Shown here piece after piece: positions 7,204 through 64,000 of a stretch of 64,000 bases of DNA. The translations under genes were made by a program, and so were the position numbers. The stretch covers positions 2,852,001 through 2,916,000 of the forward strand of contig JAUFOQ010000016.1 of assembly GCA_040285855.1 (NCBI GenBank). The letters are read 5' to 3'. Position 1 is the stretch's first letter, and the number at the start of each line of letters is the position of its first letter. The stretch is from Eukaryota sp. GEM-RC1. Taxonomy: Eukaryota. The notes beneath the pieces were generated by a model. It had not been told where the DNA came from, searched no databases, and saw only the letters and a list, made by a program, of their open reading frames with translations.

Positions 7204-7288
7204 TGTAGATTATCATAGTATGAGAATCATAGATTATAAACCAACTTAATTTCATTCATTGTATGTCCACTAACTCCATACAGCATCA
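7204..7288 (+). repeat. 3' LTR (85 bp)
   Basis: Identical to 1244-1328; followed by CTAG. Confidence 0.93.
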
Positions 7289-7292
7289 CTAG

Positions 7293-31540: not shown

Positions 31541-31929
31541 GTTGCAAATAAGCAGTACTAACGATTTCAACAAACGTTATACCAAAACCTCTTTTCATCT
31601 AATATTATTGTCTCAATCGAGTCAAAATACACGTTATGTTATTGTGGCAATATACAATTTCAGTGTGCTTGTGACATATAATTGAGAACATTCAAACTTG
31701 AGTTCTGTAGACGTTACCCAAGTCAAGAAAATCTTCTTGTTTCGACAAGTAGTTTTTCTTGGTAAATTTGAGATCAGAATTGTCGCTAATTTCACCTGAC
31801 CTCTGGCAAACTTGTTTTCCAGCAGATATTTGTGAAATTCAGAACGATGAGTCACCTCGTTAAAATTTGCTCTTAAGAAACTGCAAAACACCTTTTGAAA
31901 CATTTTGAATGTCTGGATTTAAAATTCGT

Positions 31930-38338: not shown

Positions 38339-41300
38339 TGATGCTGTATGGAGTTAGTGGACATACAATGAATGAAATTAAGTTGGTTTATAATCTATGA
38401 TTCTCATACTATGATAATCTACACTACTTCTTCTCCTTCTTCGAACCAGTTCTTCTTCGAGTTCTCTTGGCTATGGGAGTCTTGTTAGGATTAGCTTTTG
38501 AGGATGATCTCTTTCTCTGGTCTATGCAAGGATTATTATTATTTTTCTTAAACGCCATAAATGCCTTAGTGTTTTTAATACTTGAAGTAGCAACTGCAGT
38601 GATATCTCCTCCATACCATAATACAGAACACATTGGACCTTCAGGTGAGTCGAATTGATCTAACACTTCAGTGATGACATGTTCTTCCTTATCACCAGCT
38701 GCAACTTGTTGATGGATGCCATGATCTGATGGGAGGTCAGAATGGTAGAGTTTGCATTGATGTACACTAGCTTGGGATTCAATGCCAGATACAAGGTTCT
38801 TGATTTTCAAGGATGATGATGAAAGGAGCTCGATGACCAGGAATGGGCCAGAGTGTTTGCCATGAAGCTTTGTAGCAGTCTTAGAGGATCTGAGGATCAT
38901 ATCGCCAATTTCAAATGGATTTGATTTATTGGACTTAGGGGTCTCTTTGACGATTGATTGCTACTTGCTGATTCTTGCCTTTCCCGGATTCTCTCGTTTT
39001 TCTTTGAAGGTCTTCGATAAAAGGGATACTTAAATTGGAAGCTTCGAGGGCTCTGAGTATGATACTAGGATCTGCCTTAGGCCCAAAAGAGGACCCAAAC
39101 ATTAGTTCATAAGGGGTGTGTTCAGTGTAACGATTCTTTGTTGCGTTTAGCTGGAGTTGTACGAAGGGAAGGTATTCGGTCCAGTTGTCGAATGTTCCAA
39201 AGTCGATTAGGAAACGTTGAAGATTTCTTAAGACATCGCGATGACGTCTCTCGACTAACCCGTTAGATTGAGAAAAGTGGGGGATGGATGTTGTGTTATC
39301 AATTGCCAGCAGTTGACAGACTGCGTTGAATGTTGCGTTAGCAAATTCAGGACCGTTGTCGCTGTGGATGGAATAGGGGATACCGAATATACCACATACG
39401 TTGAACACGAGTGCATATGCAACTTCTTTAGCGTTCAGTTCATTGATTGGGGCTAATATAGTGAATCTTGTGAAAGAATCTACAAATACTAGGATGTAAC
39501 GGTTACCTTCAGCGTCAGGGGATAATGGACCAATAGTGTCTACATTAACTTTGGCGAATGGTTTATCGGCCCAAAGTGATCCTGAGTGAGGGATTTGATC
39601 CCTTTTGACAGGGGATGTCTTTTGGCATGAGGGACAGCTCTTGATATGATTGACTAGATCGTCTTTCATGTTAGGCCACCAGTAGTCGCTGTCGTTAAGG
39701 TTTTTAACTGATGTTGCTATACTGGGATGACCAGATTGTACTAATCCATGGATGTTGAGCAAGGCGGATTTCCTGAGGGACAAGGGGATCAGGATTTTCT
39801 TGTCGTTGGTTAGATATAACTGTACTCTATCGTAGAATGTTGTGTTGTTGAAGAGGGGTTCGTTTGACTCAATCGCTTTGAATTGTTCGGAACGGATTCT
39901 GCTCAACCAATTGCTGAAGATTGGGAGATCTCTTTGTGCAACTTCACGGAGACTGTTAATTGAGGGGGAGATCGGTGTGATCAATTCTTGTAACGGCTAC
40001 TGGATCATCAGTAGGTTGTGCAGCGGATTTCTGGATGGGAGATTGGTGAGGACATAACCGTGAGAGCATGTCTGCCCAGTGGTTGTCAACTCCAGATGTG
40101 TGTACGATGTCGAATTGGTATTCTGAAAGTACGAAGAGCCATCTTTTAACCATTCTGTTCTTATCGGGACACGAAATGAGGTATGCTAGGTTCTTGTGAT
40201 CTGTGAAGATTGTAAGGTGCCTAGTCTTGAGGAAGTTAGCCAAGCTCGACTCAGTCAGGATGATGAGGATGGCGTAAAGCTCTTTCTGGATGGTCGCCCA
40301 GTTGAGCTGAGAATCGGACAGTATACGGCTGAAGAAACTAATAGGTTGAACCTTTCGTTTTATCAATGGTGTATCTGGTGGACTTGGAGAGATTTCGTTC
40401 CAGATGACACCTCCAACAGCAAGGTCAGAAGCGTCTGCGCTAATGAGGATGTTACTATTGGGGCCAGGAAGGTCGAGTGGTATTTGATGGACTATCAAAT
40501 TTTGATTGAATCAAAAGCTCGTTGGTGTTTGTGTTCCCATTTTACGCCTTTAGGTTTTCCTTTGGTCAGGGCGATAATTGGGGCTAACAATTGAGAGATT
40601 CCTGGTAACCAGTCTCTGATGTAGTTGATTGAACCTACGAGGCTTCTTACATCTTTTACTGTCTTGGGATTTGGAATTTCAAGGACAGCTTTGATTCTGA
40701 CATCATCGATTAATCTGGTTTTGTTGTGGAAGATACTGCCTAATATCTTGATTGGGTGTTTGTGGGTTACAAACTTGCACTTGTGGATGCCGAGGGTTAC
40801 TCTAGCGGATTGTGCTTTATTGAAAACTGCTCGAAGTCGAGTTATAAATTCATCGAACGCTGAAGCTATAACTATGATGTCATCTAGATAGATGAAGACT
40901 CCATCCATTGCGAAGATCTCTGTCATCAGGTTTTGAAAAATTGCTGGTACATTTTTCAGGCCGAATGGAGCTCTGGTGAACTTGATTGTTCTGCCAGGGA
41001 ATGTTAAAGCAGTTTTGTCCATATCTTTTGGAGCAACTTTGAGTTGCCAGAAGGCCTTGGGGAGATCGAGGGTTGCAATGAAGTTTGCTGCTGGTAAGAA
41101 TGTGATCACGTCAGCGATGTTGGGCAGGTCGGATGCTATCGGGACTGTTGAATCGTTAACACCTCCTGTTCCGCTGTAATCTCCAGTCAGACGTGGTTTC
41201 CTATGATCAGGGTATGTGACGAGTACTACAGGGCTTGAGAACTTAGATTGTGGGGATGACACGGCGAAACCTTGTTCGATAAGTTCGTCAAAGATGCCAT

Positions 41301-44300
41301 TGGCGATCTTTAGCTTCTCAGGATTGAAGTAGCGTGGTTTCCTTTTGACGACAGTTGATTCGTCGTGGAAGGGTATTTCCATTGGGGGACAATCTATTCC
41401 ATCAGGATGGGGAGTCGACTGAAATATGATCCTGAATTCTTCTAAGAGGGATGTGAGCTCTTCCTCTAGAAGTTGATTGTCTAGTTCGATTGTGCAACCG
41501 GATTCAACTGGATTGAATGATGTGGAATGATCGGTGTGTCTGGACCTCACTGGTGAGTGTGTGCTCATTAGGTGATCGAATTCCGATTCATCTTTCAAGA
41601 TGGTGTTATGTTCTTTATCTAGTCTAATGACTAGGCTGTCCTCTGTCAACAGCCCTAATTTGTTTAATAAATCGATTCCGATGAGCATTGTTTTATTACC
41701 GGTAACAATAGGGAAGGAGTGATCTATATAAACTAGGTTAGCTGCGCTATTGAGCTGGAACGCAAGAACACCTTTGGCTGTGCCTAAGGACGATGTACGG
41801 GTGCCATTTGCAGTGATGTAGGAGATTGTTTCCTGTGAGGTGTTCATCTTGCAGAGATCGACTAAGTCTTGAGTGATGACGGAGACTTGTGCGCCTGAAT
41901 CTATGGTTCCGGATATTGAAACATCGTTAACAGACATGTTCAGGGCAATGAATTTGTCTTGGTTGTTGCGAGTTATACTCATAATCCTGGCTGTATCGTT
42001 GAGGATTTCGCTGATAGGATTGTTGAGTGTGTGTGAGGTGTAAGAGCTTGGTGTCGAGGTTGTCGACAAAAATTCAAATAATTATCGTTTTTATTACGCT
42101 TTAAATCTACATTACCACTACCGGATCTGCGTTTTCTTTCTTCAAACTTACCAGCGTTTAAAGAGGATACTCTGCAGTTGGGATCGGGGCACATTTCGAC
42201 TGTATGGCCAGGCTCTTTGCAGTACTTACATACTGATTCAGATCCTGTGTCTCTGTGCTTGGGCTTTTGGCGATTCTTACCGGGACCTCTGGGACCTTTG
42301 AATTGTCCACGTTTATGAGATTTTTTTCGGGGGTTCCTATTTCTAACGTCTGAGTCACTGTCAGAGTCGAAGGAGGGACGGAAGTTCTTCAACTTGTTGT
42401 ATCGAGGGACACTCGAGTGATGGAGATAGGGGCACTTGACTCAGTGATTGGGGGAGTGGATGGACGAGTAGTGTCCAGGAATCTAGCATCTGAGATATAT
42501 TGGAATCTAATATTCTGACGCTGGATGTTCTGGCTGCACCAGTTCAAGTACCGGTCTTTCAGGTCCTTGAACACCTCGACTGTGCTGAGTTGAGCAAAGG
42601 AGGCTTTATCTTTGAAGAAGATCTTCGTGTCCGATCGGATGATTGGAATACCGATGTTGTGGGCAAAGTATTTTAATATGTCCCGGGCTTCGAAACAGTA
42701 CAACTGAGTGGTGTTCAGTTCAATCATGGTGGACATGTTTGCCACGATTGTGAAGCGGCGAAGGAAGTCATCCCAACGCTCTTTGTTGGAGCTCCATGAC
42801 TTGTCCCAGTCCATGCGGCATTCGGCAAGGGCGTTGTCTGCAATCTGGGGGGATTCAAATTGGGAGCTGATGATTATTCGTTCCCAGATTGCCCAGTTGC
42901 ATAAGGAGTTGGCGATGGTGCCATCAGATTTCCACGAGCTCAGGATGTGAGGGTCTACATGGAGTTGAATTCCTCTAATGTCGACGTTTAGCAGAAGGTC
43001 TCTGGCTAAATCGAGGCCATGACGGGGTTCGCCATAAGTGGTCTTGTTGATGGATAGTACATCCTCGAAAGGAGTGAACAGTTCATCTGCTGTGGTGGGT
43101 TCGGCAAGTTGTCTCCAGGCCAGTACTTGGTTTTCGAGTTCGAGCAGATGTTGGGATATATCAATGCTCTTACCGCGGGCTCTGGAATACCGGCGCCACT
43201 CTAGAGCGAAATTCAGGCATGAAAACTGGTCGGTTTTCTGCAAGTAAGGCGGTTTGAGCTTGGATTCTCGGCGGGTTTCGTTTTCGAGTTCAGCGAACTT
43301 TGCGTTTTCAGGGGTAGCTACGCCAGTGGCTGCATCCATGAAGGAACTGGGGAATCAGCTCCGAACTCAAACTTGGTATTGGTAAAAGCAGTAGGTACTG
43401 TTATACCAGGGAGTTTGCTCGTATCACTGGGCAAAGTGAAGATTAAGCCACCTTTGGGTTTGGTGGAGTTGGATATTACCTTAGGGGTCGCCATAGGTGA
43501 ATCTAAAGCCTTAGGTTGAGGGGTACTCAACTGCTTCATGACCGTTAACATCTCCATTCTGAGATCATTGTTCTCTTTCAGGAGTTGTTCCACGAGGGGA
43601 TTGGAATTCCCTGTGTCTTGAATTGGGATAGGCAGGGAATCGCTGCTGGGTGAAATGTCGTCTTTTGGGGGAGTCTTGTCTGGAGATGAAACATGGAGGG
43701 ACTGAGAGACAAGTCATCCTCTGAAGCTGACTTATTCTGTTCAGCCTGTTCTTTCCCAAGACGGATGAGTTCGGCGTTGATGTCACCATATCTTTCAATC
43801 AACAGCTTCGTGTGGAGTTCACGATTTTCACGGAGTTCTTTAGGGTTTAAAGCTATCCCTGTTCGATTGAAGTTTTGTCGTTTACATAACTCTTCTTGTT
43901 GGGATCAGGGGTTCTGATATCATCTGGGTCAGATGTTTTTATCCCATTTGGAAGATACGTTACTTTGAGCTTATTCTTCTTAGAAGAAGTCTTCTTCGAA
44001 GGGACACTCTTAGTTTTACGAACAGGAGGGACACTCTTGGGTTTACGAACAGGAGGGACACTCTTGTCGTTGAGTTTGGAAGATTTACGAGCAAGAGGGA
44101 TGCTCTTGTCGTCAGGACTGAGAAGGACATTCTCATCCTGTTTATCCTCGGAGAGAGGAATGATTGAAGGTTTACTTTCTTTTTCAGAAGGGGATACCTC
44201 CTTCCCAAGAGAAGTCTTCAGCATATTGATGCTGGGAAGAGATCCTGGATCTGAGGTGAGTTCCACGTCGGCGTTTTCAGCCAATACGTATTGATGCTGT

Positions 44301-44376
44301 ATGGAGTTAGTGGACATACAATGAATGAAATTAAGTTGGTTTATAATCTATGATTCTCATACTATGATAATCTACA
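38339..44376 (-). mobile_element. Ty3/Gypsy LTR retrotransposon, copy 2 (same insertion, segmentally duplicated)
   Basis: LTRs at 44292-44376 and 38339-38423; TSD CTAG (38335-38338, 44377-44380); flanks are the same as copy 1. Confidence 0.96.
38424..44317 (-). CDS. gag-pol: Gag-Pol polyprotein, copy 2 (several 1-bp homopolymer frameshifts)
   Basis: Fragments nearly identical to copy 1; intact CPSC and in-frame chromodomain-like tail. Confidence 0.88.
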
Positions 44377-44816
44377 CTAGGAACATTCAGCATGATGTAG
44401 TGTAATACTGAATGTGTCATCCACATGTGTACAGCCTTTTACTCAACACTGAAATCCTTTTAAGGACATTGGAAGGACCCCATCAAAAGCAAGTTCCCAA
44501 TTCACGTAGAATAAAGTGATTTTATTACTTGCATTGTATTAAAGTTGATTGTGATACCTAGTTATGATGTATAGTCAATTACAAGAGAAATTTGTTATGC
44601 CAGCTTACAATCTCATTATACAAAGTCAATTCTCAGAAAACACTGTTAGTAATGTTGTTCAAATACAGATAGTTTCTGCTGATGTGCAGAAATGTGTGTG
44701 TGTGTTAACCGGACCCATACGAACCGTAGAGGTTTGTGATTCAGATGAATATAACACTCTCATGTAATTAAACACCTAATCATTACATGTTACATACACC
44801 TTAAATGGTGTAGCCG

Positions 44817-47800
44817 GTGTTGAGCGTATCAAACTTGTCAGAATTGCGGAATGAATTTCAATCTCTTGTTCTTCTCTTGATGATGATATCGTTTCCAATT
44901 TCTCCCCTCAGAACACAGATAGCTTCCGCTTTGTTGAAAGACTTACAGATCGATAATAATTCCCCCCGTGAAATTTTTGGTTGCAAAGATTTCTTCTACG
45001 GCTTTATTCCATCATTTCTACACCGGCTATGTTAATTCATGTTCCGATTTCCTGATTGAGCATCCTGTCGCTCTGCTTAGTGATGACAAAGACGTCAAAG
45101 ATTCTTTTGGAAACGATCAAGATGGTGATGTTCCTTCTGGAATTGATCCTGTAGCAGCTGCTACTACAATTTCTCAACAAATTGTACAGTTCATTGCCCA
45201 ACTGCTTGAACCTGATGTCAAGGCTTCTCATTTGGAGTCTATTTATAGTAGTTTTAAAGAAGAAGAAATGTCTAATGAAATGGAAATTCTTTCCCTCCTT
45301 GATCCCTCTGGAAAACTTCAGAAAGATGTTCTGTTTAATATCAAATCATGGGTCAATCGTCACGTGTGGGATCCAATCATTGCCTGTTTCAAGAATTCGT
45401 CTGGATTATTTAGTTCAATCTTAGTTTCAACGTTCATTGTTGATAGAAGAATTACTTCTGTTCCAGAACTCTCTCCAGACTCTCTATTATCTGACTTTGG
45501 ATCTTACTCCAAGAAGTTGAGCTCAATGGTTGATTGCAGTCATTGCAATCGTACGTCACCGCCACTGTATTTACAAATCTTCCAACTTCTTAACAATGCG
45601 GATGACTTACTTTCAATTCTGAACAAACACTCTACTTTCACACCGGAAGAACTTTCCTCTAAGCTCTATGGTAACTTTGCCGCCTCTTATACTGTTAATA
45701 GCTCTGTCGCTCAGTTTTTCATCAGTATGTTGGATGATCCCAAATCTCTATGGAATTCTGTATTAAAGCCAATGTTTGATGATGGAAATGCTAACATGCG
45801 TCAGTTATTAAGAAATCTTCATGAATGGATGAACAAAAATTGTAACTCTCCTCAACGTGTTGCTGCAGATGTTAAGTCAATCAATCAATTAAAGAGTGCA
45901 ATCAAGGCGATTGACGAGTTGTTGGTCAGTGATGGTGATCAATCTGCATTGATTAATATCATTTCTAAGTGTAACTTCCAAGAAGGTATTTTACGTTTCA
46001 ATCTTGAGACCATTACTGTCAGACTGCAGCTTCCTACTGGAGAAGATAGTACAATTGATATCCCAGAAGAAGAGTTTCATAGAGCTAGAGCTGAAGGACT
46101 TCGTCTTAAAGTAGAATCTATTGATAATAACGAGGAACAAGTTGATCGAAAGTCTGGAGTTGATGATGAAAAAGAGATCAATTTTTAAATATATCTCAAC
46201 TAGTTGATGAAACACTTTTTATTTTGAGACAATTAGTTGATTGTGGTTTTCCCATCAAATCTAATGAGCCTGAACTTATTGTTATGATTGAAGAACATAA
46301 CTCTGGTATTCAACAACAAGTCGAGACTTTACGAGAATTACGTGATACTTGGATGTCTCTCTTGGAACAAGCTCAAAATGGCTGGTTTAGAGGCATGCAT
46401 CCAAAAGAAATTTCAAACTTTCTTTTGAATCGTCACGTGGCTGATATAGTAAGATATTTTGAATTCCCAAAATATTTTGCAAATAATTCAGCTCAATCTG
46501 GAATTGATGCCAGTTATTCTGTCAATGTTAAACTCGAGGAAATATTCAATTCTGCAGCTCCTGTTGTTGAAATTAAAGATCGATCAATCACGTATTTTCA
46601 ATCAGATTCTCTATCAAATCTTTTCACTGATGCTTTGAAAATAGCAGTTCATAGAGAGATTGAATTGAACATTCGAAATGTTTTAATTTGTAATTGGGAA
46701 ACTTCTTTCAGTTCTTTAGTTGCTGTTATGTCTGACTCACTAGTATCTGAACGATTAATTATTGGTTTTGATCAATTGAGATTTTCTGTTCGAGAGAAGT
46801 TCTATACTTATATGAAGGATAAGAACGACGACAATTTTAAAATTTCTGTCGTTGGGTCTGGTACTGATTTCCTTGACAATACTCACTCTGTACTTGGTAC
46901 CCTTCCTTCGGAAGTTGACTTGTCTTCAGTATTAGAAAGCTGTACTGTAGGTGCAATTTACACGTCAGCAGTACCTGGTCAAGGTAAAACTACAAGGTGT
47001 TTAAGAGAATGCGTTCCTGAAGGTTTGATTGAAACTCATACAAAAACATTTAATGTTTCGGGAAAAGTTAATATTTCTGAGTTTATTGAAAAATATCTTC
47101 GTGATGATAAGATTGATTGGACAAATCCTAATATTCATTTAGACATTCGAGAGCCTTTGGATGTTTTAAAAAGAACGTTCACTCGAGAACACTGGACAAC
47201 GTCATCCAATTTGACTTCCCAAGACTTCTACAATACTGCTTACATTTTGTTTTCATTGTCCTTTCTCTCAGGTCTTCGGCACAATGGTTCTATTTTTAGA
47301 CTTGAGGAAAAGATGTATATTGAGTTTGCTTCATATTCCAGAGCCAGTTTAACTCCATTTAATTGGTATAATTCTCTTATTGATTCTTTATATCCAAACA
47401 AAGATGATCTTGTCCATGAACTTACTTTTGATTTTGGCCATGTTAAATTCACTTCTGAAGAAATGAAAGCACACGTCGCTACAATTTCTCGTTTTCTTTC
47501 CACTCTTCTCAATTCTTCTGCTTCGTTAGAACCTCTTTTTACTAATACTTTTGCAGATCTACCTCCTCCTCATCAAAGTCAATGGTCATTTAGACTACTT
47601 ACAGATATTGTTTCTTTACTGGGATCACAATTGTACTATTTTGGTCAAGCTGTCGCCTTTTCTCCTGAGATTATGACTCTAAATGGGTACAGTGACAGTC
47701 AAACTGATGACATTCGCCGTGGTGGTATTGATCTAATATTTGGCTTTGCCCGTCAGACCGTTCTCATGTCAGTACCCACGATCAGTGCTCCTGATAGAGA

Positions 47801-48575
47801 TGAAGTTGTGGTTAATTGGAATGATATGAATCATGTTATGTTCATGTTAACTCGTGATTCTCCTTCAATTACAGTTCCAAGAGGAAGTACCGTTCCAAAT
47901 GCTCTCAAAACCTATATCGATATGAACACTTCTTCCAGGGATTCAGTCGAAATACCAGCCACTGATGAAGGAAAAATTTCAATAATTCGTTCGTTTACTT
48001 TTGACAGCTCTGTGCCACCTAAATTATGGAAAGAACGTTTCGGAAGCTACGCCCTTACTGGTGATGCTTATCTTAAACAATCCTTAATTGCTCTCAGATT
48101 TTCTGCTAATTTGCCTACCATTCTTCGAGGTGCTAGTGGTGTTGGAAAAACTCATTTACTGGAATGTTTAAGTTTTATTTTATTTTGGAATGAATCTGCT
48201 GAAAATCCTAATATATGGGAAGAATTGTTTGTTAACGTTACTGTAAATGCTGGTACAGAACTTCGCGAAGTAGAAGATACTATTAAAAGGGTCAACAATC
48301 TTGCCATACTACTTCCTCCTGAAAGTCCTCTCTTTCCGATTCTATTTTTAGATGAATGTAATGCTTCTGATTTCTTAGGACTCATGTCTTGTTTAATTAC
48401 CAACAGAAAACTTGGAACTCTAACTTTACATCCAAAAGTCCGTTTAGTAGCTGCTATCAATCCATATCAAAAAGGTGATGGTGATAAGCTTTTGTACAAT
48501 GTTCACCCAGAACCTTCATGTTTAATCCCTCTCATGATGGACTTTGGTAAGTTGTCTGAAAAGGATGAAACCTAA
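44817..48575 (+). pseudogene. RNF213: Truncated RNF213/mysterin-like dynein-type AAA+ ATPase (region through the second AAA module)
   Basis: SAVPGQGKT; YALTGDAYLK..IALRFSANLPTILRGASGVGKT; LFLDECN; VAAINPY; LLYNVHPEPSCLIPLMMDFGKLS (RNF213 signature VYRVHxLPxSLxxxVWDFGQL). The 46188/46224 break is one A-run indel. Homologue, not a demonstrated orthologue; the start is uncertain. Confidence 0.85.
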
Positions 48576-50170: not shown

Positions 50171-53100
50171 ATGGATTGTGTTGTTTGTTATGACTCCATT
50201 ATTGATTTGTAGTGAAGGACACACCGCATGTGCTCAATGCTCAGCTGCATTGGACATCTGTCCTGTCTGCCGTAGTCAATCTCTCAGCGTAACAAAACCT
50301 AATTTTGCTCTACAAGATCTCATCCGATCTTCTCGTAATGGCGATCTTTGTCCTCAAATTCCCTCCGATCACATACTTCTCGGAACTAAAATAGCTGAAG
50401 GTGGTTTTGCTGTCGTCTACGCTGCTGAATGGTCCGATCTCCCTGTCGCTGTAAAGATGGTTGAACTTACAGATGTAGGAAAACTCCAACTCCAAAAAGA
50501 AATGAATCTGCTCTACAACCTGAATCATCCCTCTATTATACGTGTCTATGGCATCTCCTTCTTCAATGATTCCATTGGTATCGTGATGGAAAGAGCTTCT
50601 TCTTCCCTCCCCCTTCCCAAGTTCTCTTTCTCCAGTAACACTTAGATACGCTAAAGAGCTTTGCCAGGGTGTGAAGTTTCTCCACCTGAAGTCTGTTGTA
50701 CATGGTGACTTGGAAACCAGGTAATATACTTCTAGTGGATGGTCACGTTAAAGTTGCTGATTTTGGTACCTCCAAAACTGTTTCTACTACCACTACCATG
50801 GTAACAAAGACACATGCCGTAACTCCGAAATACGCTGCTTCTGAACAATTTGATGATTCTCCTGGTCCTTTTAGTGACATTTATTCACTTGGATTAGTTA
50901 TGTATGAAATTTTGTCTGGAAAAGAAGCTTTTGAAGGGTATTCGGTTAATCAAATTATTGGTGCTAAATTTCGAGACAAACCATTACATTTTGATTCTTC
51001 AGTACCTGATTGTTTAAAGGATTTAATTTCAAAATGTTTGAATTCTGATCCCATGATACGACCAACAATCAGTGAAATTACTGAGATTATTAAAAATGTG
51101 AATGTTTCTGATTGTGATGATAATGAAGCTGTTGTAGCTCCAAATCTGCAATTATCAGATGAAATATCCTCACTGAAAAGTCAAGTTACTGACTTAAAAA
51201 AAGAAAATGTTGATCTTTTACAATCGAATGATCAAAATATTGTGAATTTAAACTCACAGTTTACCAACAAAGAGAATTCTCTTAATGAAACTATCTCTCT
51301 TTTGACAAATCAAAACAATGTTTTAAAGGAGAAAGTCCATGATGCCGAGAATCAACTTACAAACTATAAGTCCTGTATACAATCTACTGTAAAGTCTTTG
51401 AGTGTACCATCAAATACTCCAGTCTTTGACCTTCAATCAACGACAGCTCTGGGTTTCCAGCTCATTAATTCTCTTTCTCCTACACCTCAAGCCAAAGAAG
51501 CTGTGTTATCTCATCTTTCTTTAGAGATTGAGGATAGTTCTTTAGGTAGAATATGTACTTCTTGGTTAAAGTTAGCATATATTCTTTATTGTCCTGAAGA
51601 ACTTGCTTCTGAGAATTTAATTACTAGTAAGCAAGGTGTTTTAGACACTATTAAATTCTTCTTGAAAGATCCAACACCTCATCGCTTACGTGTCATTGGA
51701 GCTCTATGTGATCATTTTGATCCTGAGTTGTTGTTACAGTCTAATCTTTTTGAGCTTGTTAGTGATCCTTCTGTTATTGGTGATGTTGCTCCATTAATTT
51801 TTCAAAAATTGTTTGAAAAATTGAAATCTGATTCTGCCCATACACAGTTATTACCATTCATTGAAGCAACATCACCAATTCTTGATCTGATTTTCTTAAT
51901 TTATATTTATTCTGAATCTTTTCCATGGTTTTTGGCTTCTTTGTCACAGTCTTTTGTTTCATCTCTACCTAAACTTGGATTACAATTACCAACTCTGTCT
52001 GAAGTACTGGCTAAGTTAGGTAAAGCCTCACAACTAACTCTAATTACTCTTTATAGTAAGTTATTTTCTATTTTGGTTGCAGATCTTATTGACCAAAACC
52101 AACCAATTCCTATCGAAGTGTTGATATTCTCACTTGACCAATCAGTACGAACAAAATCACATTTGATTGGAGTAAAGACTTTCCTTATTCGTTTACTTTT
52201 ATCACGTGGAACTGAGGGTGAAGCAATGGAAGCTCTTTCTTGTTTAATCAAGGATTCAGATGGAACTACCAGTCAAAAACAGGAGTTACTTGCCCCATTG
52301 AACTTGAATGATGACGATTTTAATGGTTTAGCAAATGATACTGACTATAAGAATAATCCTGCAATCATTGAAGAAGTCCAAAGACTTCAAAGCGGAGCTA
52401 TTGACCTATCTAAAATCACTGGGCATAAGGTTTCTGCTATTTTAATTTCTAAGAATATGAATATACCAGAATCAAATTTTAAACACATTTTCAATGTTTT
52501 TGATAATTCCCTTGCCTGTTTACTGCCAGTTGGAGAAATTTTAAATTCTGATTCTTGTCAGGCATTTACCACTGCGTCTATTGAAGCTGCTTATATTCCT
52601 TTCAATTTTCCAAATAGTTGTTTTTCAAGAATTGATTTAAATATGAATAAGAGTTTCCTACACATCTATTACTGTTTAACTTGTGGTTATTCTGCTGTTG
52701 TTAGTAATTGTGGAAGTTCAGGAGTTCACGCCTTTGGTAGAGGTTCTGATGTTTGGTTAGGGTCAAGTGAACATAAGTGTCCAAAATGTTCTGCTGTCAA
52801 TTGGTCAACATGTAATTCTTCATGCGAAGTTCCTTTCAAACACTTTTCATCCAATCCTCAATGGCAACCTGGACTACAACCTGGTTGTTACGATGTATTT
52901 GTTATTATACATTTAGAACCTTGTATGAAGGGTTTATTCCGCTATTCAAATCGAAGATCTTGGTTACTTGGATCAAGTATCTTTTTGTACATGGTCTTAG
53001 CTCGTGCTTGTGTTACTAATAGTATTGCAGACCAGTATGCTAGAATGTATGACGTTGAACATGGATTGGCTCAACTTCGTGATACATTAATTGAATGTTT

Positions 53101-53890
53101 AGATGTTTTGGCCATTGTTCTGCGTGTTACTAGACCTCAAGTTTCTTTAATCATTGCACACGTAATTCGAAAAATTTCTCATAAATTTCCAAATTTTGTA
53201 TGTACAACAATTGAGCAAAAGCGACAAACCGAAGCTCGTATCATGGGTATTCTTGATTCAATTGAACTTGATCCACTTCCCAAGTCTGATTTGACTGCGT
53301 TTACTTTGAGCTCTGGAATTAAAGGAGTTTCAATAGAGGAATTGGGTTGTGATGTTGCTGCGTTGTCTTCTTTGGTTGCATCGTCACCAATTGTTTACGA
53401 AATTCCTGATAAGTCGTCACCATTTTTAAATAATGTTGATATTTCAAAATCAAACAGTTTTATGAGTGTTGCCGAACATCTCCCTAAATTTTTAAAACTG
53501 GTGAAATTTGTTCGTGGAAAGACTGTTTCGATGTTCAAACACAAAGCTATTGTTTGTGAATCCAAATCAATCTTGACTGATCGTCACAGTAGTAAACTTT
53601 TGACGATGCTTGTAATAGTTATAACTTAATTGTGACGAATTTGCAGGAACAAATGGATAAAGAAGAATTAACTGTAGGGTGTCAAATGTTACCTGTACCA
53701 ACAGAACTTTCTGATTCTTCTTGTCTTGGATTATTCACTCTTGACGATTCTGATGATGCTATGCCTATTCGAACTCTAATTGAAGAGGAATTTGTCAATA
53801 CTCATAATACTCTTGTTGGAACTTATTCATTGGGATCGATTGATCTCTTTTCAATCAACTCTGATTCCTTTGTTCAAATCAAGTGTGACA
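50171..53890 (+). pseudogene. Type A chimera, 5' part (RING - kinase - coiled coil - RNF213-like module), broken by the inversion
   Basis: 977-aa ORF running from kinase to RZ-like finger with no frameshift, so the fusion is directly visible. Has a 23-bp deletion in the RING relative to the 62946 copy. Confidence 0.88.
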
Positions 53891-55944
53891 TAAATGATGA
53901 TAAGTTTGGGTGACTCGGATTCATTTTCAATTTTTCAAATAATTTTTCAAATATTAAAGGAGTCACGTCACCAATAACAGAAGGATCACTAACAATCTCA
54001 AAAAGATTAGACTGTAACAACAACTCAGGATCAAAATGATCACAAAGAGCTCCAATGACACGTAAGCGATTAGGTGTTGGATCTGACAAGAAGAATTTAA
54101 AAGCGTCTAAAACACATTGCTCGCTAGTAATTAAATTCTCAGAAGCAAGTTCTTCAGGACAATCATGAACAAATGCCAACTTTAACCAAGAAGTACATAT
54201 TCTGCCTAAAGAACTATCCTCAATCTCTAAAGAAAGATGAGATAACACAGCTTCTTTAGCTTCAGGTGTAGGAGTAAGAGAATTAATGAGCTGGAAACCC
54301 AGAGCTGTCGTTGATTGATCCCCATGGATTGATTGGTTGAGTGATTGTAGATGAGCGATTACCCGTGATTGGTGATAGAGTTGTTTGTTTGTTAAGAAAA
54401 TGTAAAGCTCAGAAAAGAGATCAACGATTGAGGAACAAGCAGAAGCATTTTGAACGAAAGAATCGACAAAGAATACCGATATCTCGAAATATTCAAATAT
54501 TGGTCGAACAATTGAGGTGATATCATTTTCTTCAACTTTGCAGGTATAATTATGAAGCATAACATCGTGATCTGACATATCTTCAATCAACTCCAAAAAG
54601 AGATCAAGCTCAGAATTGTTATCACGATGATATTCAATTAAAGCACAAATAAAGTAAAGGAATGGTAGTTCTGTGAAAGTTAAAATTCCAAATGAAGTTC
54701 TTGTAGAATTCCACTGTGGCAACTTAGACGAAGATAAAATCCAAGAAACGTATTCAAGGTAGGATTTAATCGACATAAAACCGGTATCAAAAGGAATCAT
54801 CAGATTCCAATCAATTAACACGGAGAAAACTTCTTTCAAGTTGGAAAACACGTGATCATTAACGATGGTGAATGAACTAAACTTTGTAAGTTTTCTTTCT
54901 AAATCACGAACTGTCTCAATCAAACAATTGTTGTGGTTGATCAAAAGGGTACTACTATCATTATCCCCAATCAAAAATGATTGATCATCACAATCAGAAA
55001 CATTCACACTTTTAATAATCTCAGTAATTTCGTTGATTGTTGGTCGTAACATGGGATCAGAATTGAAACATTTTGAAATTAAATCCTTTAAACAATCAGG
55101 TACTGAAGAATCAAAAGGTAATGAATCGTTGATATCAGGACTCTGACTCGCCACTTGGCCTTCAAAAGCTTCTTGTCCAAACAAAATTTGATACATAATT
55201 AACCCAAGTGAATAAATGTCACATTGAGGTCCATAATGTGTATTTAATTCATCTGAAACACCAGTTTTAGAAAACACGGCAGGTTTTCCAGTTTTCAAAG
55301 AAGTTGTAGAAACAGTTTTGGAGGTACCAAAATCAGCAACTTTAACGTGACCATCCACTAGAAGAATATTGCATGGTTTCAAGTCACCATGAACAACAGA
55401 CTTTAGGTGGAGAAACTTGACACCCTGGCAAAGCTCTTTAGCGTATCTAAGTGTTACTGATGACAGAGAACTTGGGAAGGGGGAGGGAAGAAGAAGCTCT
55501 TTCCATCACGATACCAATAGAATCATTGAAGAAGGAGATGCCATAGACACGTATAATAGAAGGATGATTCAAGTTGTAGAGCAGATTCATTTCTTTTTGG
55601 AGTTCGAGTTTCCCTTTATCTGTAAGGGCAACCATCTTGACAGCGACAGGGAGATCGGACCATTCGGCTGCAAAGACGACAGCAAAATCATCTTCTGCAA
55701 TTTTAGCTCCGAGAAGTATGTGATCGGGAGAAATTTGAGGGCAAAGATCGCCTTTATTGGAAGCAATGACCAGATCGAGTATACAAGAGTTAGGCTTCTT
55801 CTCTCTGAGACATTCGATACGACAGAAGGGACAGACGTCTAGAGAAGCAGAGCATTCAGTACAAGCAGAGTGTCCTTCGCCACAGACCAACAGAGGAAGA
55901 CGAGAAGAAAGATTAAATGACTTGCAGCAGCCAAAGCAGTGCAT
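53891..55944 (-). pseudogene. Type B chimera, 5' part, broken by the inversion
   Basis: RING (MHCFGCC...), kinase with AEDDF loop, linker; ends ...PNLSSF at the junction. Confidence 0.88.
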
Positions 55945-56599
55945 CCAAAGTGATAGGGTTTTGTTTTGGAAATCAAAATTGAATTTCTATTTGTCAAAAC
56001 TAACATTCAAAACTTATTATTCACGAACAGCTTTTCTCCAGTTAAGAGTGTCACAATTCATTGTAAAATGTGTCTATTGATGATTTCTTAGTCTGTTTGG
56101 AACTCGATACAAGTATTTCTGAAATATATGAGATTGTAAATATAAATTCAATTCTGGCCAAGCTTTTTGGTGGTAACTACTAGTGCTTGTCGGACTTGGA
56201 TAGTGCGCTTGATAATTTCCTGTACGTGCTTTGTTAAGTGCATTCTAGTATCGGTATCCAAATTGAGGTAACACAACGAAATGAACTGACTCTACACGAT
56301 ATGTCAATATTTGACTGTATTGATGGAACTCCCTGTTATTATATACTAGTATATATATATATATCTACAGAATTTTGTTTTCGAGTTTTGTAATCGATAT
56401 CCTTCAAGTACTTCTCTTTGTCAAATTACTTACAGTTTATATCTCATTCATCTCCGTTGCGATATTGGAGGTTTTTCTCCCGAGTGATGCTCACTTTGTT
56501 TTCCTACTGATATCACAGTATTTCCATGTCGAAACATTTTGTCTTTAAAATTTGCTTTAAAGATATTCGTAAATCATTTATTAAATTATTGTGAGTGTA

Positions 56600-57400
56600 A
56601 ATTTTACTGTTCGGTTAAGGAAAAAACCCAGTTTCCCTAATTTGTTAATTGATTTTAATGAGGGTGCTGATGTGGCATTAATTAATCAAATTCCACAAGG
56701 GTGTTGTTTATTTTTATATTTTACCTTATAGATTTTACTTATCTCCGTCTCATAAACATATGTCATTTATTTTCTCTGATACTAGTACCCCATTTGACGG
56801 TATAGTCAACAAGGGTATGGTCTACTATTAAACGATCATCAATGGACCACTACCATGCGACTTCGTTGCTGTTTATGACCATACAATTTGCCAAACGATC
56901 TTTTATGTAGTTGTGGTAAACAATTAGCATGTACTCATTTTTTAAGTTGTAATCGCTACATAACTTATCAGACATGTATGCATGAATGATACTGTAACAG
57001 ACCAAATACATGCTATGTGTAAGTTCTGGAAAATTGAATAATTTGTAGAACCACTTCTAAACTCTTTAGATTTAAATTATTGTAATATTGTAATGGCGAA
57101 ATAAAGAACCAATTTTTGGGTAAACGGAGAGCAGATGTTGTTGTCCCTTCTTCTGCAGACAAATTGTATGTTGTTGATGTGGTGTCTGTGGATGCTTGTA
57201 AGAAGACATCTTTAAAGAATGCTTACTCTAAAACCTCCCCTTTGGACATTTATGAACAAGCCAAACTTGATAAGTACAAAAAATCATTAATGGCTCTAAA
57301 ACTTGTAAAACGTGTTAAGTACGAATTATACCCTTTTGGTCTATCCAGCTTCGGAAAAACAATTTTCCTAGTCATCTCCAAAGCTTTACTAGCTCTGAAT
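56600..57400 (+). mobile_element. Decayed RLE-type non-LTR relic (copy of 22880..23650)
   Basis: KRRADVVVPS...VVDVVSVD...EQAKLDKY...YPFG. Confidence 0.72.
56702..56811. mobile_element. 110-bp solo LTR-like insertion
   Basis: TGTTG...CAACA termini; 4-bp TSD AGGG (56698-56701, 56812-56815); absent from the paralogous site near 22968. Confidence 0.8.
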
Positions 57401-57562
57401 ATATCGGTTGTAAGATTTGGTGATGACAAATGTTGTTTTATTGATAACAATTTTGGTTATATCACTTTTATAAATTACGTCATAAACAACTTCTCGATTG
57501 TTTATACAATGTATAAACATGTACATATGATATGATCTTTGGATAAAGCTTGATAAATTAAC

Positions 57563-58155
57563 CAGGGGTTGAAAAATATATGTTTATTGTCCACCAAAAA
57601 TATTTATTGACACTCTGTGAGGTCGAACAACATGGTATTGTTATTGTAAACAATATATATATATTTATGGACAATAGATTGCAATATTGGAAAATACAAA
57701 CAACAGTTTTTTCTACGAGTTGTAAATCCTGCGAAGTGTTTTCTGATTTCACAAAGCATGATTGAAGCGCAAAAACAGTTGTTTTTGTAAGGTATAAGGA
57801 TCCAAAGCAGGTCCATGACAACATAAAGTGGGGTTTGTGTGACTGATGAGCCTCTCTCCACTTCCCCTACTGGGTGGGTGATGGAGAAGAGGTCATTGTC
57901 TACTGAATTGATGGTGCTTGAAACAATAAGTTGACACTTGAAGGCGAATGTCGAAGTCACTACATAGTCTTGTTTAGATTCCTTCCTCTTCAGGGAATGT
58001 CGATACTATTACACAATGTATTTTCCTACAAATATTCTATAAAACACTGCTGAATCGATTAATTTTGTCTAACATTACCCAACAATATATTGTACAACAT
58101 TGTTATTGTACTTATTGCAATATATTGCAATATCAATATATTTTTTCCAATCCAG
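57563..58155. mobile_element. MITE family 2, second copy (right end degenerate)
   Basis: Left TSD and TIR as at 23813; right end reads ttccaatccag-aagttcac. Confidence 0.78.
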
Positions 58156-58518
58156 AAGTTCACTGATGTGCTTTTGCTTATGTTTCGTATTTAATATCAT
58201 CAAATTGTTTAAACATTTTCATTTCAACATCAGGTATTTTAAATCCAATTGGTAACATTTTGTTTCTATTTAAAAAGATATACAATTGTAAGAGGAAGTT
58301 TAAAGAGGAATCTTATACTTGGGATTATTCACCACTTCGAGTTTATAAAAACATTGAGTTTACTTATTCGCCATCATTAACATTGTTACCAATGAAATGA
58401 GACGGAATGTAATAGTGTTCTAATCACTAATTATTTCAATTCATAGTCAAAAGATTTGTGTGTCCACATGTGCGTTGAACATCAGTTCAATAGAACAAGC
58501 ACAAAATCATTTTTGAGT

Positions 58519-61500
58519 CTACAAAGTCAATCTCTCCAATCCCCAAAAAGTATCAGAAGCTTTCAATTGAGATTCCTCCAAGAACTCAAAATCTTCGCTG
58601 AAACAACAAACTTCGTAGTCTTGCGAATCCATTGGATGAATTCCAACTCTCAAAACAAACTTCTTTAATAAACTAATAAATTCTCTAATGCGAGACTTTC
58701 TTTTAAGTTTAAGTAAAGATTGTACCTTACTAACAGAAAGTTTGGTTTTAAACTGATCCTGAACCAATTCTTCAAGGAGCTGGAATGGGAAATGTAGTTC
58801 TACCGAATTTAATATTGTTAAAATCTGCCCAATAGATTCATTTTCAAAAAGAAATCCAATATTTTGACAAAAGTCATCCAGTTTTCTCTGTTTCAGGAAT
58901 GCCTTTAAGCTCATAGACCTGTCATTTGGAAGTTCTGTAGCGATAGTTCTAGTGACAATAATAATTTCATTATAAAGAGGCAGGTAATCATCAACAATAA
59001 TAGAAGGTGGACAATCAACATTATCATCGACAGTAAACCCTTCTTTTAAGAGGAAATCTTCTAATTCGTACAAGTCTTTGGATTTGGAAAGTAGAAACTG
59101 TGGTAATTCTATTGGTTCAATTTTGTGCTTAATCAATCCAGAAAGGATGTAACCGTCATAAACGTGATCTACAACACGTAAACGGCAAGTGAAAGGATCA
59201 AGGGTGATGCCGCGACTGTCACACTTGATTTGAACAAAGGAATCAGAGTTGATTGAAAAGAGATCAATCGATCCCAATGAATAAGTTCCAACAAGAGTAT
59301 TATGAGTGTTAACAAATTCCTCTTCAATTAGAGTTCGAATAGGCATAGCATCCTCACAATCGTCAAGAGTAAATAATCCAAGACAAGAAGAATCAGAAAG
59401 TTCTGTTGGTACAGGTACCATTTGACACCCTACAGTTAATTCTTCTTTATCCATTTGTTCCTGCAAATTCGTCACAATTAAGTTATAACTATTACAAGCA
59501 TCGTCAAAAAGTTTTCTGCTTTGACGATCAGCCAAGATTGATTTGGATTCACATACAATAGCTTTGTGTTTGAACATCGAAACAGTCTTTCCACGAACAA
59601 ATTTCACCAGTTTTAAAAATTCAGGAAAATGTTCGGCAACACTCATAAAACTGTTTGCTTTTGAAATATCAACATTATTTAAAAATGGTGACGACTTATC
59701 AGGAATTTCGTTAACAATTGGTGACGATCCAACCAATGATGACAACGCAGCAACATCACTGCGCAATTCCTCTATTGAAACTCCTTTAATTCCAGAGCTC
59801 AAAGTAAACGCAGTCACATCAGACTTGGGAAGTGGATCAAGTTCAATTGAATCAAGAATAGCCATGAGACGAGCTTCGGTTTGTCGTTTTTGCTCAATTG
59901 TTACACACACAAAATTTGGAAATTTATGAGAAATTTTTCGAATTACGTGAGCAAGGATTAAAGAAACTTGAGGTCTAGTAACACGCAGAACAATGGCCAA
60001 AAGATCTAAACATTCAATTAATGTATCACGAAGTTGAGCCAATCCATGTTCAACGTCATACATTCTAGCATACTGGTCTGCAATACCATTAGTAACACAA
60101 GCACGAGCTAAGACCATGTACAAAAAGATACTCGATCCAAGTAACCAAGATCTTCGATTTGAATAGCGGAATAAACCCTTCAAACAACGTTCTAAAGTAA
60201 TAAATACAACGTAACGACCAGGCTGTAGTCCAGGTTGCCATTGAGGATTGGAGCAGAAGTGTTTGAAAGGAACTTCGGATGAAGAATTACATGTTGACCA
60301 ATTGACAGCAGAGCATTTTGGACACTTATGTTCACTTGACCCTAACCAAACATCAGAACCTCTACCAAAGGCGTGAACTCCTGAACTTCCACAATTACTA
60401 ACAACAGCAGAATAACCACAAGTTAAACAGTAATAGATGTGTAGGAAACTCCTATTCATATTTAAATCAATTCTTGAAAAACAACTATTTGGAAAATTGA
60501 AAGGAATATAAGCAGCTTCAATAGACGAAGTGGTAAATGCCTGGCAAGAATCAAAATTTCTCCAAGTGGGAGTAAACAGGAAAGTGAATTATCAAAGACA
60601 TTGAAAATGTGTTTAAAATTTGATTCTGGTATATTCATATTCTTAGATATTATAATAGCAGAAACCTTATGCCCAGTGATTTCAGATAGGTCAATAGCTC
60701 CGCTTTGAAGTCTTTGGACTTCTTCAATGATTGCAGGATTATTCTTATAGTCAGTATCATTTGATAAACCATTAAAATCGTCATCATTCAAGTTCAATGG
60801 GGCAAGTAACTCCTGTTTTTGACTGGTAGTTCCATCTGAATCCTTGATTAATTCAGCAAGAGCTTCCATTGCTTCACCCTCAGTTCCACGTGATAAAAGT
60901 AAACGAATAAGGAAAGTCTTTGTTCCAATCAAATGTGATTGTGTTCGTACTGATTGGTCAAGTGAGAAGATCAAAACTTCAATAGGAAGTGGTTGGTTTT
61001 TGTCAACAAGATCTGTAACCAAAATAGAAAATAACTTACTATAAAGAGTAATTAGAGTTAGTTGTGAGGCTTTACGTAACTTAACTAGAACTTCAGAAAG
61101 ACTTGGTAATTTGAATCCAAGTTTAGGCAGATATGAAACAAAAGACTGTGACAAAGAAGCCAAAAACCATGGAAAAGATTCAGAATAAATATAAATTAAG
61201 AAAATCAGATCAAGAATTGGTGATGTTGCTTCAATGAATGGTAATAGCTGTGTATGGGCAGAATCAGATTTCAATTTTTGAAACAATTTTTGAAATATTA
61301 ATGGAGCAACATCACCAATAACAGAAGGATCACTAACAAGCTCAAAAAGATTAGACTGTAACAACAACTCAGGATCAAAATGATCACAAAGAGCTCCAAT
61401 GACACGTAAGCGATGAGGTGTTGGATCTGACAAGAACAATTTAATAGTGTCTAAAACATCTTGTTCACTAGTAATTAAATTCTCAGAAGCAAGTTCTTCA

Positions 61501-62946
61501 GGACAATAAAGAATATATGCTAACTTTAACCAAGAAGTACATATTCTACCTAAAGAACTATCCTCAATCTCTAAAGAAAGATGAGATAACACAGCTTCTT
61601 TGGCTTGAGGTGTAGGAGAAAGAGAATTAATGAGCTGGAAACCCAGAGCTGTCGTTGATTGATCCCCATGGATTGGTGTATCTGATGGTACACTCAAGGA
61701 CTTTACAGTAGATTGTATACAGGACTTATAGTTTGTAAGTTGATTCTCGGCATCATGGACTTTCTCCTTTAAAACATTGTTTTGATTTGTCAAAAGAGAG
61801 ATAGTTTCATTAAGAGAATTTTCTTTGTTGGTAAACTGTGAGTTTAAATTCACAATATTTTGATCATTCGATTGTAAAAGATCAACATTTTCTTTTTTTA
61901 AGTCAGTAACTTGACTTTTCAGTGAGGATATTTCATCTGATAATTGCAGATTTGGAGCTACAATAGCTTCATTATAATCACAATCAGAAACATTCACATT
62001 TTTAACAATCTCAGTAATTTCATTGATTGTGGGTCGTAACATGGGATCAGAATTCAAACATTTTGAAATTAAATCCTTTAAACAATCAGGCATTGAAGAA
62101 TCAAAATATAATGGTTTGTCTCGAAATTTCGCACCAATAATTTGATTAACCGAATACCCTTCAAAAGCTTCTTTTCCAGACAAAATTTCATACATAACTA
62201 ATCCAAGTGAATAAATGTCACTAAAAGGACCAGGAGGATCATCAAATTGTTCAGAAGCAGCGTATTTCGGAGTTACGGCATGTGTCTTTGTTACCATGGT
62301 AGTGGTAGTAGAAACAGTTTTGGAGGTACCAAAATCAGCAACTTTAACGTGACCATCAACTAGAAGTATATTACCTGGTTTCAAGTCACCATGTACAACA
62401 GACTTCAGGTGGAGAAACTTCACACCCTGGCAAAGCTCTTTAACGTATCTAAGTGTTACTGATGAAAGAGAACTTGGGAAGGGGGAGGGAAGAAGAAGCT
62501 CTTTCCATCACGATACCAATGGAATCATTGAAGAAGGAGATGCCATAGACACGTATAATAGAAGGATGATTCAGGTTGTAGAGCAGATTCATTTCCTTTT
62601 GGAGTTGGAGTTTTCCTACATCTGTAAGTTCAACCATCTTGACAGCGACAGGGAGATCGGACCATTCAGCAGCGTAGACGACACCAAAACCACCTTCAGC
62701 TATTTTAGTTCCGAGAAGTATGTGATCGGAGGGAATTTGAGGGCAAAGGTCTCCATTACGAGAAGCTCGGATGAGATCTTGTAGAGCAAAATTAGGTTTT
62801 GTCTCGCTGAGAGATTTACTGCGGCAGACAGGACAGATGTCCAATGCAGCTGAGCATTGAGCACATGCGGTGTGTCCTTCACTACAAATCAATAATGGAA
62901 GACGAGAAGATAGATTGAAAGAGTCATAACAAACAACACAATCCAT
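58519..62946 (-). CDS. Type A chimera, complete (~1470 aa consensus): RING - kinase - coiled coil - RNF213-like E3 module with RZ-like finger and C-terminal domain
   Basis: Three collinear ORFs (165, 653, 646 aa) separated by small indels; AEGGF, VAVK, HGDLKPGN, DFG, YAASE; YYCLTCGY...SNCG...CPKC; NTHN; LKKFVLRV. Confidence 0.87.
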
Positions 62947-63029
62947 TGATAGATCAAGAATAGGAATGAGTTACTGGTGATTGTAGTACTACAGTAGTAT
63001 AAAACGAAGAAAGGAACATTTTTACTAAG

Positions 63030-63819
63030 ACATCCATTAACACACAGTATCTATTGTACTACGTCTACACGTAATAGTAGACTTGAGAGTCTTATTGAGA
63101 ATAACTCTGTACTCGATGTTTCTATAAGTGAACCAACACTTTTTTCGGTTCTTCTACTAAGGAAGCTCTAAATTTGCTTGAAAATTTGTGTTCAGAATTT
63201 GATAAGAAGTTTTACAGCTCATACTGGATGAGTAAAATTGATGTTTCGACTTTTTAGTCATTTTTAGATTTGTTGATTCTATTTTGGCCAAGTTGTTTGG
63301 TTGTAACTATTTTTGGGAATTGAGTAATTCGCTTGATAGTCTGTTTTAATAATCTTTATTTTATTTGTTGTTTTCTTGTTGTGTGTTTTTCTCCGCAGAT
63401 AAACCCGTTTTATTACCAGGTCCACTTTAGTAGAGTGTACCTACATCTAGTCATCAATATCCACAAAGTCCAAAATTTGTCTTTGGAGATACAAATGATC
63501 TTGTGATCTACTTTCAACATAATGTATGTTTGAAGGTAATTTCTGGACTGATGCTCATCTCATTGGTTTCGTCAAACCCAGTAAGGGAATTAAATCTGAT
63601 GGAATCCGTCCAATTGCTTATGGACAATCAATCTCCCGTTTCTTTGCTTCAATTGTTTTTTATCGAGTGGTTGATACAGCAGATCGCTTTTTATCTCCAT
63701 TCAAATTTGGAATTAAGATATCAGCTTTGTTGTTTAATTCTCACGATGATAACTTAATTTCTATTCTCCATTCTACAATGCATTTGATTCCGTTAGTCGT
63801 AAGTCCGTTTTTGCTTTGA
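63030..63819 (+). mobile_element. CRE-like non-LTR fragments, mirrored copy
   Basis: LIGFVKPSKGIKSDGIRPIAYGQSISRFF...LSPFKFGIK. Confidence 0.65.
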
Positions 63820-64000
63820 CTGAAAAAGAGTATTCTGAGTTATCATCCTACTTTTTTTCGTTCTATTGAAAATCAAGTGATTACATTTATGATGTTACTA
63901 CAAGTGTGAGCACATAAATCTCATGTTGTAACATCAAGAAATATTTGACTGGAATTAATAAAGAGAAGATGTAAGTCAACTCGATCCGAATTATTAATTG

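Follow-up and report, generated by a model that had tools for sequence, protein, structure and literature searches.

We describe four gene types, A–D, in a 64,000-nucleotide stretch of the genome of Eukaryota sp. GEM-RC1 (assembly GCA_040285855.1, contig JAUFOQ010000016.1, positions 2,852,001 to 2,916,000; hereafter the window) that are chimeras: a head that consists of a RING domain and a protein kinase (A, B, and D) or of a BTB domain (C) is followed by a module that is the C-terminal end of a giant AAA protein resembling RNF213. The chimeras are real and recent, and their function is inferred; we assign a probability of about 0.5 to the reading in which A and B are likely motor-free ubiquitin ligases and C and D are likely decaying or dead. 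GEM-RC1, an anaerobic protist, is described as a Skoliomonas, a free-living bacterivorous metamonad (PMC11316075). The window is eukaryotic, with a GC content of ~35% and numerous frameshifted open reading frames (ORFs).

The module almost certainly derives from the organism's own RNF213-like AAA giants. In A and B it corresponds to the last 1,050–1,200 residues of P0022 (KAL0236552.1; 2,919 residues), to which the window copies are 73–84% identical; A matches residues 1865–2919, reaching the end of the giant, and B has the longer piece (residues ~1709–2919) as well as a linker behind the kinase that is 69% identical over 164 residues to the end of the AAA protein P0007. When a profile of the module was compared with 1.84 billion proteins, 11 matches were obtained, 10 of them skoliomonad; these include the C-termini of three AAA giants of 3,000–4,000 residues from three species (P0016, P0017, and P0019). 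The ATPases associated with the module are of the RNF213 type: P0016 (3,970 residues) matches the module profile with an E-value of 2e-39 and the RNF213 ATPase with 4e-34; ORF 46170–48575 in the window matches the RNF213 ATPase with 6e-10, and P0007, one of its long relatives, with 6e-28. Altogether, three skoliomonad species encode eight RNF213-like AAA proteins (P0006–P0009, P0016, P0017, P0019, and P0022), five of them in GEM-RC1; all eight are annotated as hypothetical, and one has an N-terminal BTB domain. No Pfam kinase match was found in P0022, P0016, or P0019, and a regular expression for RING domains matched none of seven giants or giant fragments; the sole RING sits in the head. A tree of a 175-residue core has support for 3 of its 13 branches and resolves little; in it, the window copies have short branches and sit near P0022. 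The remaining profile match, P0020, is a bacterial repeat protein with eight weak stretches and was discarded as spurious.

Two further AAA giants of 3,850 residues, P0010 and P0011, do not match the module profile; at a similar place (residues ~3116 and ~3143, respectively) they have a short CxxC...CxxC finger in which the CG cysteine is absent. By eye, the N-termini of P0016 and P0019 look similar to the CBM20-like domain reported for the N-terminus of RNF213; no CBM20-type Pfam match was found in these N-termini at an E-value of 0.1.

The original prediction described four gene types with one shared C-terminal module, and a frameshift-aware alignment recovers all four (A, 62946–58522; B, 22218–17466; C', 28944–30952; D', 33574–35672, with primes marking twin copies) together with the motifs that had been listed, in the listed order. 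The stretch that is common to all four types is limited to ~340 residues (giant residues 2173–2513): C and D are truncated, ending in DKSSPL and TLSS with identical stops in both twins of each, and the NTHN motif is confined to the A- and B-type copies. The three different join points, the truncation of C and D, and the loss of a candidate catalytic cysteine in D (vide infra) are evident in the alignments.

The predicted heads were borne out by Pfam, with RING and kinase matches in A, B, and D and a BTB match in C. All of the kinase motifs that we checked (Gly loop, VAVK Lys, αC Glu, HxDLKxxN, DFG, and APE) are present in D; A has the full active-type set with ASE in place of APE, and the kinase of B, in which the Gly loop reads EDDF and the APE segment is missing, is likely impaired. 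The RING-kinase head is a cassette that carries varied tails in three skoliomonad species: in P0023–P0048 (annotated as hypothetical) the head is at most 69% identical to that of D, the precomputed Pfam tails include LRR, TPR, UBA, and others, and 25 of the 26 proteins lack giant-derived sequence. The head search gave 47 matches, with 19 non-skoliomonad kinases left out of the giant-tail test; giant-derived sequence was found in 4 of the 29 RING-kinase proteins tested, all four from GEM-RC1. The join point of D recurs in P0004 and P0005, both of which differ from the window sequence. The BTB head of C is ~80% identical over 270 residues to the N-terminus of the BTB-AAA giant P0006, so either internal deletion within a BTB-AAA giant or a second cassette swap gave rise to C. 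In three cassette proteins (P0030, P0046, and P0047), for which the precomputed Pfam annotation lists the kinase only, the tail is long and consists of cysteine-rich repeats and an unassigned domain.

Self-comparison of the window identifies a ~33.7-kb unit that occurs twice and holds four co-oriented genes, A–D: 1–20175 matches 25485–45619 in inverted orientation (98.6% identity), 49094–53890 matches 59217–64000 in inverted orientation (94.9%), and 20175–25485 matches 53890–59217 as a direct repeat (92–97%). The layout is a tandem duplication of this unit in which 25486–53890 is inverted (Table 1), and the inversion junctions fall within A' and B', breaking both. When the inversion is undone, the order is the AAA fragment, A, B, C, and D on one strand, followed by a retrotransposon. 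The eight copies are, then, four genes in a unit that is present twice. They do not form an established family: the members are recent pieces of local AAA giants and occur in one of the three skoliomonad species searched. Because the named protein P0013 is a 100% match to the un-inverted A' junction (body and tail joined) and P0015 and P0028 match the inverted junctions, further units or an alternative arrangement exist.

Table 1. Features of the window; positions are those of the 64,000-nucleotide stretch.
Feature	Position	Strand	Remarks
Gene A: C3HC4 RING, kinase, coiled coil, giant-derived module	58519–62946	-	~1,470 codons
Gene A finger: four-cysteine, at RZ position (CxxC-x8-CG ... CPKC)	60315–60432	-	nucleophile candidate kept; Tyr at His ligand
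A' body (twin of A)	50171–53890	+	ends at inversion breakpoint 53890
A' tail, parted from body by inversion	24788–25485	-	P0013 joins both at 100%
Gene B: RING, degenerate kinase, longest giant-derived piece	17460–22218	-	many -1 homopolymer breaks
B' N-terminal half: RING-kinase and giant-derived linker	53890–55944	-	severed by inversion
B' C-terminal half	25486–28200	+	from self-comparison and alignment to P0022
C': BTB head and giant residues ~2170–2550	28944–30952	+	finger has His and CG
C (twin of C')	14704–16714	-	additional in-frame stop near 14791
D': RING-kinase and giant residues 2173–2513	33574–35675	+	8-residue deletion in finger
D (twin of D')	9968–12064	-	sole copy with kinase N- and C-lobes in a single frame
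N-terminal half of RNF213-like AAA giant	44938–48575	+	85–86% identical to P0022 and P0006
Inverted segment (28.4 kb) in tandem duplication	25486–53890	.	clean reciprocal junctions, microhomology ≤1 nt
LTR retrotransposon, 91-bp terminal direct repeats	1241–7291	+	1,807-aa ORF
LTR retrotransposon, twin	38336–44379	-	

The module is very probably homologous to the E3 end of RNF213; the individual results of structure and sequence comparison are weak, and homology is likely because they agree with the position of the module behind an RNF213-type AAA core. When the module or finger sequence was compared with solved structures, neither RNF213 nor ZNFX1 was retrieved, and at the sequence level the module does not match animal RNF213 significantly. 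A HMMER profile that includes the giants aligns the segment from HLPEFLKL to NTHN with residues 4200–4320 of the mouse RNF213 chain at a sub-threshold −1.9 bits; the register is that of the original prediction, so two of its motif pairs line up. The predicted model of 51437–53581 has a predicted local distance difference test score (pLDDT) of 67 and a predicted template-modeling score (pTM) of 0.47. In a Foldseek search of 350,542 chains with this model, the RNF213 structures 9jwg and 8s24 rank first and second (E-values of 1.5e-3 and 2.7e-3; next, 5e-2), with TM scores of 0.20–0.23 and E-values above 0.001. VIA superimposes model residues 53–652 on RNF213 4051–4744 with a Z-score of 12.8 over 414 residues (next best, 6.9) and a root-mean-square deviation of 12.7; Z-scores below ~13 may be generic for helical models. 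The helical E3 module of RNF213 is the best match of the fold in both comparisons, at moderate strength. By a rough estimate, the finger (model residues 413–451, predicted at a pLDDT of 40–59) interpolates to RNF213 ~4470, near the RZ finger (4505–4537). The C-terminal model of A (58522–60546; pLDDT of 44) gave generic matches only; the A and B sequences run to the C-terminal end of the giants. The proposed identity of the module with the E3 part of RNF213 is upheld by its place at the C-terminus of an AAA giant and by the best structural match; significant sequence similarity was not found, and the Pfam profile for the RZ finger stayed below its cut-off.

That finger had been called an RZ finger. 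In RNF213, as described, zinc is bound by C4505, H4509, C4525, and C4528, the nucleophile is C4516, and the base is H4537 (PMC11549300); ZNFX1 is reported to have the same spacing (bioRxiv 10.1101/2025.10.14.682297). Compared with the canonical spacing (C-x3-H-x6-C-x8-C-x2-C-x8-H), the window finger is C-x2-C-x8-C-x14..22-C-x2..4-C, that is, the first zinc pair is C-x2-C, not C-x3-H; the pattern C-x2-C-x8-CG, His-Gly loop, C-x2..4-C is found in the window copies and in four giant-type proteins. A His follows the first pair in C, D, and P0022, and the position is occupied by Tyr, Phe, or Ala in A (Tyr), B (Phe), P0014, P0016, and P0019; because this His varies, zinc is likely held by the four cysteines. 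The candidate nucleophile (CG) is retained in A, A', B, B', C, C', P0022, P0014, P0016, and P0019, is deleted in D, D', and P0005, and is replaced by Ser in P0004; the 8-residue deletion in D' also takes out the His of the HG loop. The window copies have no His nine residues beyond the last zinc cysteine (the equivalent of H4537). In B, C, and the four giant-type proteins (P0022, P0014, P0016, and P0019, in which the downstream HG is kept with CxxC-x8-CG), a His-Gly is located 5–9 residues past the candidate nucleophile; A has His-Ala-Phe-Gly there. The Pfam RZ profile (PF20173) gives at best 13.5 bits (E-value of 0.058; cut-off of 27) and matches three of five fingers at an E-value ≤10, covering the first half of the profile only. 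No IBR/Rcat is among the 13 families listed for the five fingers at this threshold, and HMMER filters drop weak matches. The finger is, by its sequence, RZ-like and at the RZ position, not a canonical RZ finger; also, the motif quoted for the whole family, with both His and CG, is that of type C only.

As read, the coding sequences are broken. The two breaks in A are a +1 C near 62490 and a 7-bp deletion at 60553; its ORF 60465–62507 carries the kinase C-lobe and the module in one frame. An uninterrupted kinase-to-module ORF had been put forward in the A' body, and 50690–53629 is indeed open from stop to stop and spans the C-lobe into the module; however, it contains the C-lobe only, is frameshifted before NTHN, and belongs to a damaged, inversion-cut copy (a 23-bp deletion in the RING and +1 breaks at 50607 and 50713, one in the catalytic loop). 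In neither C copy does the frame continue from the BTB head into the module (A-runs of 4 and 3), and beyond the stop that follows DKSSPL in C' is a decayed remnant. The Skoliomonas assemblies are described as based on early nanopore reads with short-read polishing (PMC11316075). The twins differ by 52 indels, of which 42 change a single base and 30 fall in runs of ≥3, a pattern that long-read errors would produce. Of 48 frame breaks, 36 lie beside runs of ≥4 (background, 23%), an approximate tally that includes composite-reference artefacts (A, 59505/59479; B, 18158–18109; C', 29792–29804). The retrotransposon has one 1,807-residue ORF in one unit; its twin in the other unit, 99–100% identical, is split into at least seven pieces. 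Many of the breaks are therefore likely assembly errors. The kinase contains a C-run that is in frame only with four Cs: there are five at 62505, 50589, 55503, and 21778, four at 11631, and three at 34014. The extra C in A, A', B, and B' could reflect a base-calling error that recurs systematically or a real frameshift that these copies share; at this site, three named paralogues from other contigs have, by eye, out-of-frame-looking text, which fits an error, although this is unproven.

The differences between the twins are informative. For A, the ratio of nonsynonymous to synonymous differences (pN/pS) is 0.33 (p 2e-12), or ~0.48 when the patchy tail is excluded; for B, it is 0.27 (p 3e-6). 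No nonsense substitutions occur in the aligned codons of A, B, and D; these substitution patterns show apparent purifying selection on A and B. The divergence of A from A' is even (2–5%), like that of the flank (3–6%), and that of B, C, and the tail of A is patchy.

Every head-module junction is present in two diverged copies. If the fusions were assembly chimeras of repeats, as might be suspected in a repetitive, error-rich region where named proteins match inverted and un-inverted junctions alike, the two copies of each junction would not be expected to differ with a synonymous bias, nor would the join point of D be expected in P0004 and P0005, distinct from the window; we consider this explanation very improbable. 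The array could instead be rearrangement debris, that is, shuffled, duplicated, and decaying pieces of giants and mobile RING-kinase genes from which no working protein is made. Within one unit are an AAA half and two modules, all of them truncated, as well as a pair of retrotransposons, an inversion that breaks genes, and deletions of several bases; C has an extra stop, and the fusions are confined to one species, all as debris would predict; however, A and A' diverge uniformly with pN well below pS and zero nonsense substitutions, head and module are co-oriented at three RING-kinase join points, and at two of these (A and B) the frame carries through in the sequence as it stands. We regard debris as a doubtful account of the whole array.

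Several results weigh against reading A and B as working ligases, in addition to the sub-threshold sequence match to animal RNF213, the TM scores, E-values, and root-mean-square deviation of the structural comparisons, and the pLDDT of the finger given above. No copy in the window is open from Met to stop. The 7-bp deletion in A, the 23-bp deletion in A', and the inversion through A' and B' are unlike homopolymer errors, and the additional stop in C is also not of the homopolymer type; four of six copies share the +1 C of the kinase. The pN/pS ratios of C (0.58) and D (0.78) are not significantly below 1, and gene conversion from working giants may inflate the selection signal of B, C, and the tail of A. 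None of the six RING-kinase proteins from the two other skoliomonad species has the module. Finally, A–D lack the AAA core that switches on the RNF213 E3.

With these points weighed, we put the chance that the array contains an intact, expressed copy of A or B at slightly better than even. In RNF213, E2~ubiquitin is described as docking on the C-terminal domain (CTD) and the RZ cysteine as accepting the ubiquitin, with CTD deletion abolishing activity; the AAA core, when it binds ATP, turns on the E3 (PMC12075652). In A and B, the candidate cysteine and the whole tail are retained, and the head contributes a C3HC4 RING to a scaffold in which none was found; these proteins could thus relay ubiquitin through a cysteine, fed by the CTD or by the RING, in the manner proposed for Miz-to-RZ transfer in ZNFX1. 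Given expression, such ligase activity would be somewhat more probable than not by analogy. E2~ubiquitin would dock on the C-terminal domain or on the head RING, ubiquitin would be transferred to the four-cysteine finger, onto the cysteine within its [D/N/E]CG motif, and the His of the same finger loop may serve as base. The weakest step is the last: the kinase might stand in for the ATP-sensing AAA ring as a switch or targeting device, perhaps with a defence or stress role in a bacterivore. By the same analogy, C and D, without the tail, would fail by the RNF213 route.

A more elaborate version, in which A and B are expressed, kinase-gated ligases whose head RING loads E2~ubiquitin for an RBR-like relay to the Cys-His loop of a four-cysteine finger on an RNF213 scaffold, with the kinase replacing the AAA motor as switch and the array as an immune locus that creates new ligases from shuffled pieces of giants, is unlikely in our judgment. 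The proteins might also be made without being ligases: as decoys or regulators, they would present an E3 surface or titrate the partners of the giants while the RING-kinase signals, much as in receptors with integrated domains. The deletion of the candidate cysteine in D and its replacement by Ser in P0004 would fit such a role, as would the absence from C and D of the tail described as docking E2 in RNF213 (PMC12075652), the many unrelated tails of the RING-kinase head in three species, and structure 9jwg, in which the RNF213 E3 part was solved with a bound Shigella effector; however, A and B retain both cysteine and tail, and the decoy role is drawn from analogy. We consider it improbable, and our preferred reading is still that A and B are motor-free ligases.

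Among known systems, mammalian RNF213/mysterin (PDB 9jwg, 8s24, and 6tax) shares with the chimeras a helical E3 module, a finger near the RZ position, and a CG cysteine past the first pair of zinc ligands, and the AAA core of the parent giants is of its type (E-value of 4e-34); in contrast, in A–D a kinase or BTB head takes the place of the stalk and AAA ring, no RING was found in the giants (regular expression), the finger spacing is altered, and module sequence identity is not significant. ZNFX1, described as a bi-catalytic Miz and RZ E3 for which Miz-to-RZ ubiquitin transfer is proposed (bioRxiv 10.1101/2025.10.14.682297), likewise has an RZ-type finger behind another engine and a RING-like E2-binding domain upstream; as described there, it shares the finger alone with RNF213, on a helicase, whereas here a 340–1,200-residue piece of a giant lies behind a RING-kinase. 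The skoliomonad giants P0022, P0016 (KAL0208276.1), and P0019 (KAL0225064.1) are the direct source of the module and have the same four-cysteine finger; they differ from A–D in retaining the AAA core and in having no Pfam kinase. The skoliomonad RING-kinase cassette proteins have the head in common with A, B, and D, and their tails differ. As the original prediction anticipated, a literature search (with subscription papers and supplements outside it) found no description of a kinase- or BTB-headed RNF213 module or of a metamonad RNF213.

The genes were also predicted to be AAA-free, and no AAA match was found when the A–D ORFs were scanned against Pfam; the RNF213-like AAA fragment in the same unit was overlooked. 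It contains the Walker A and B motifs of one AAA unit followed immediately by a stop, with a frame break near 46180, and its twin (1–682) runs off the window edge. The retrotransposon adjoins this fragment on its upstream side, and its ORF encodes, in order, a zinc knuckle, protease, reverse transcriptase, RNase H, and integrase. Between the genes are related short ORFs (13162–13716, 31923–32324, 57086–57535, and 22887–23209) that by eye resemble the C-terminal endonuclease region of non-LTR retroelements; two of the four were scanned against Pfam, with zero matches.

How the AAA core activates the E3 module of RNF213 is described as an open question (PMC12075652), and natural motor-free versions with another upstream domain would be a ready test of the contribution of the motor. 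The catalytic definition of the RZ finger would become broader if it had to admit four cysteines and a His in another place. Should the copies prove dead, their value would be reduced to that of domain shuffling caught in the act. Several RNF213-like giants are placed in a free-living bacterivorous metamonad, where they are cut up and recombined, as with animal and plant immune genes.

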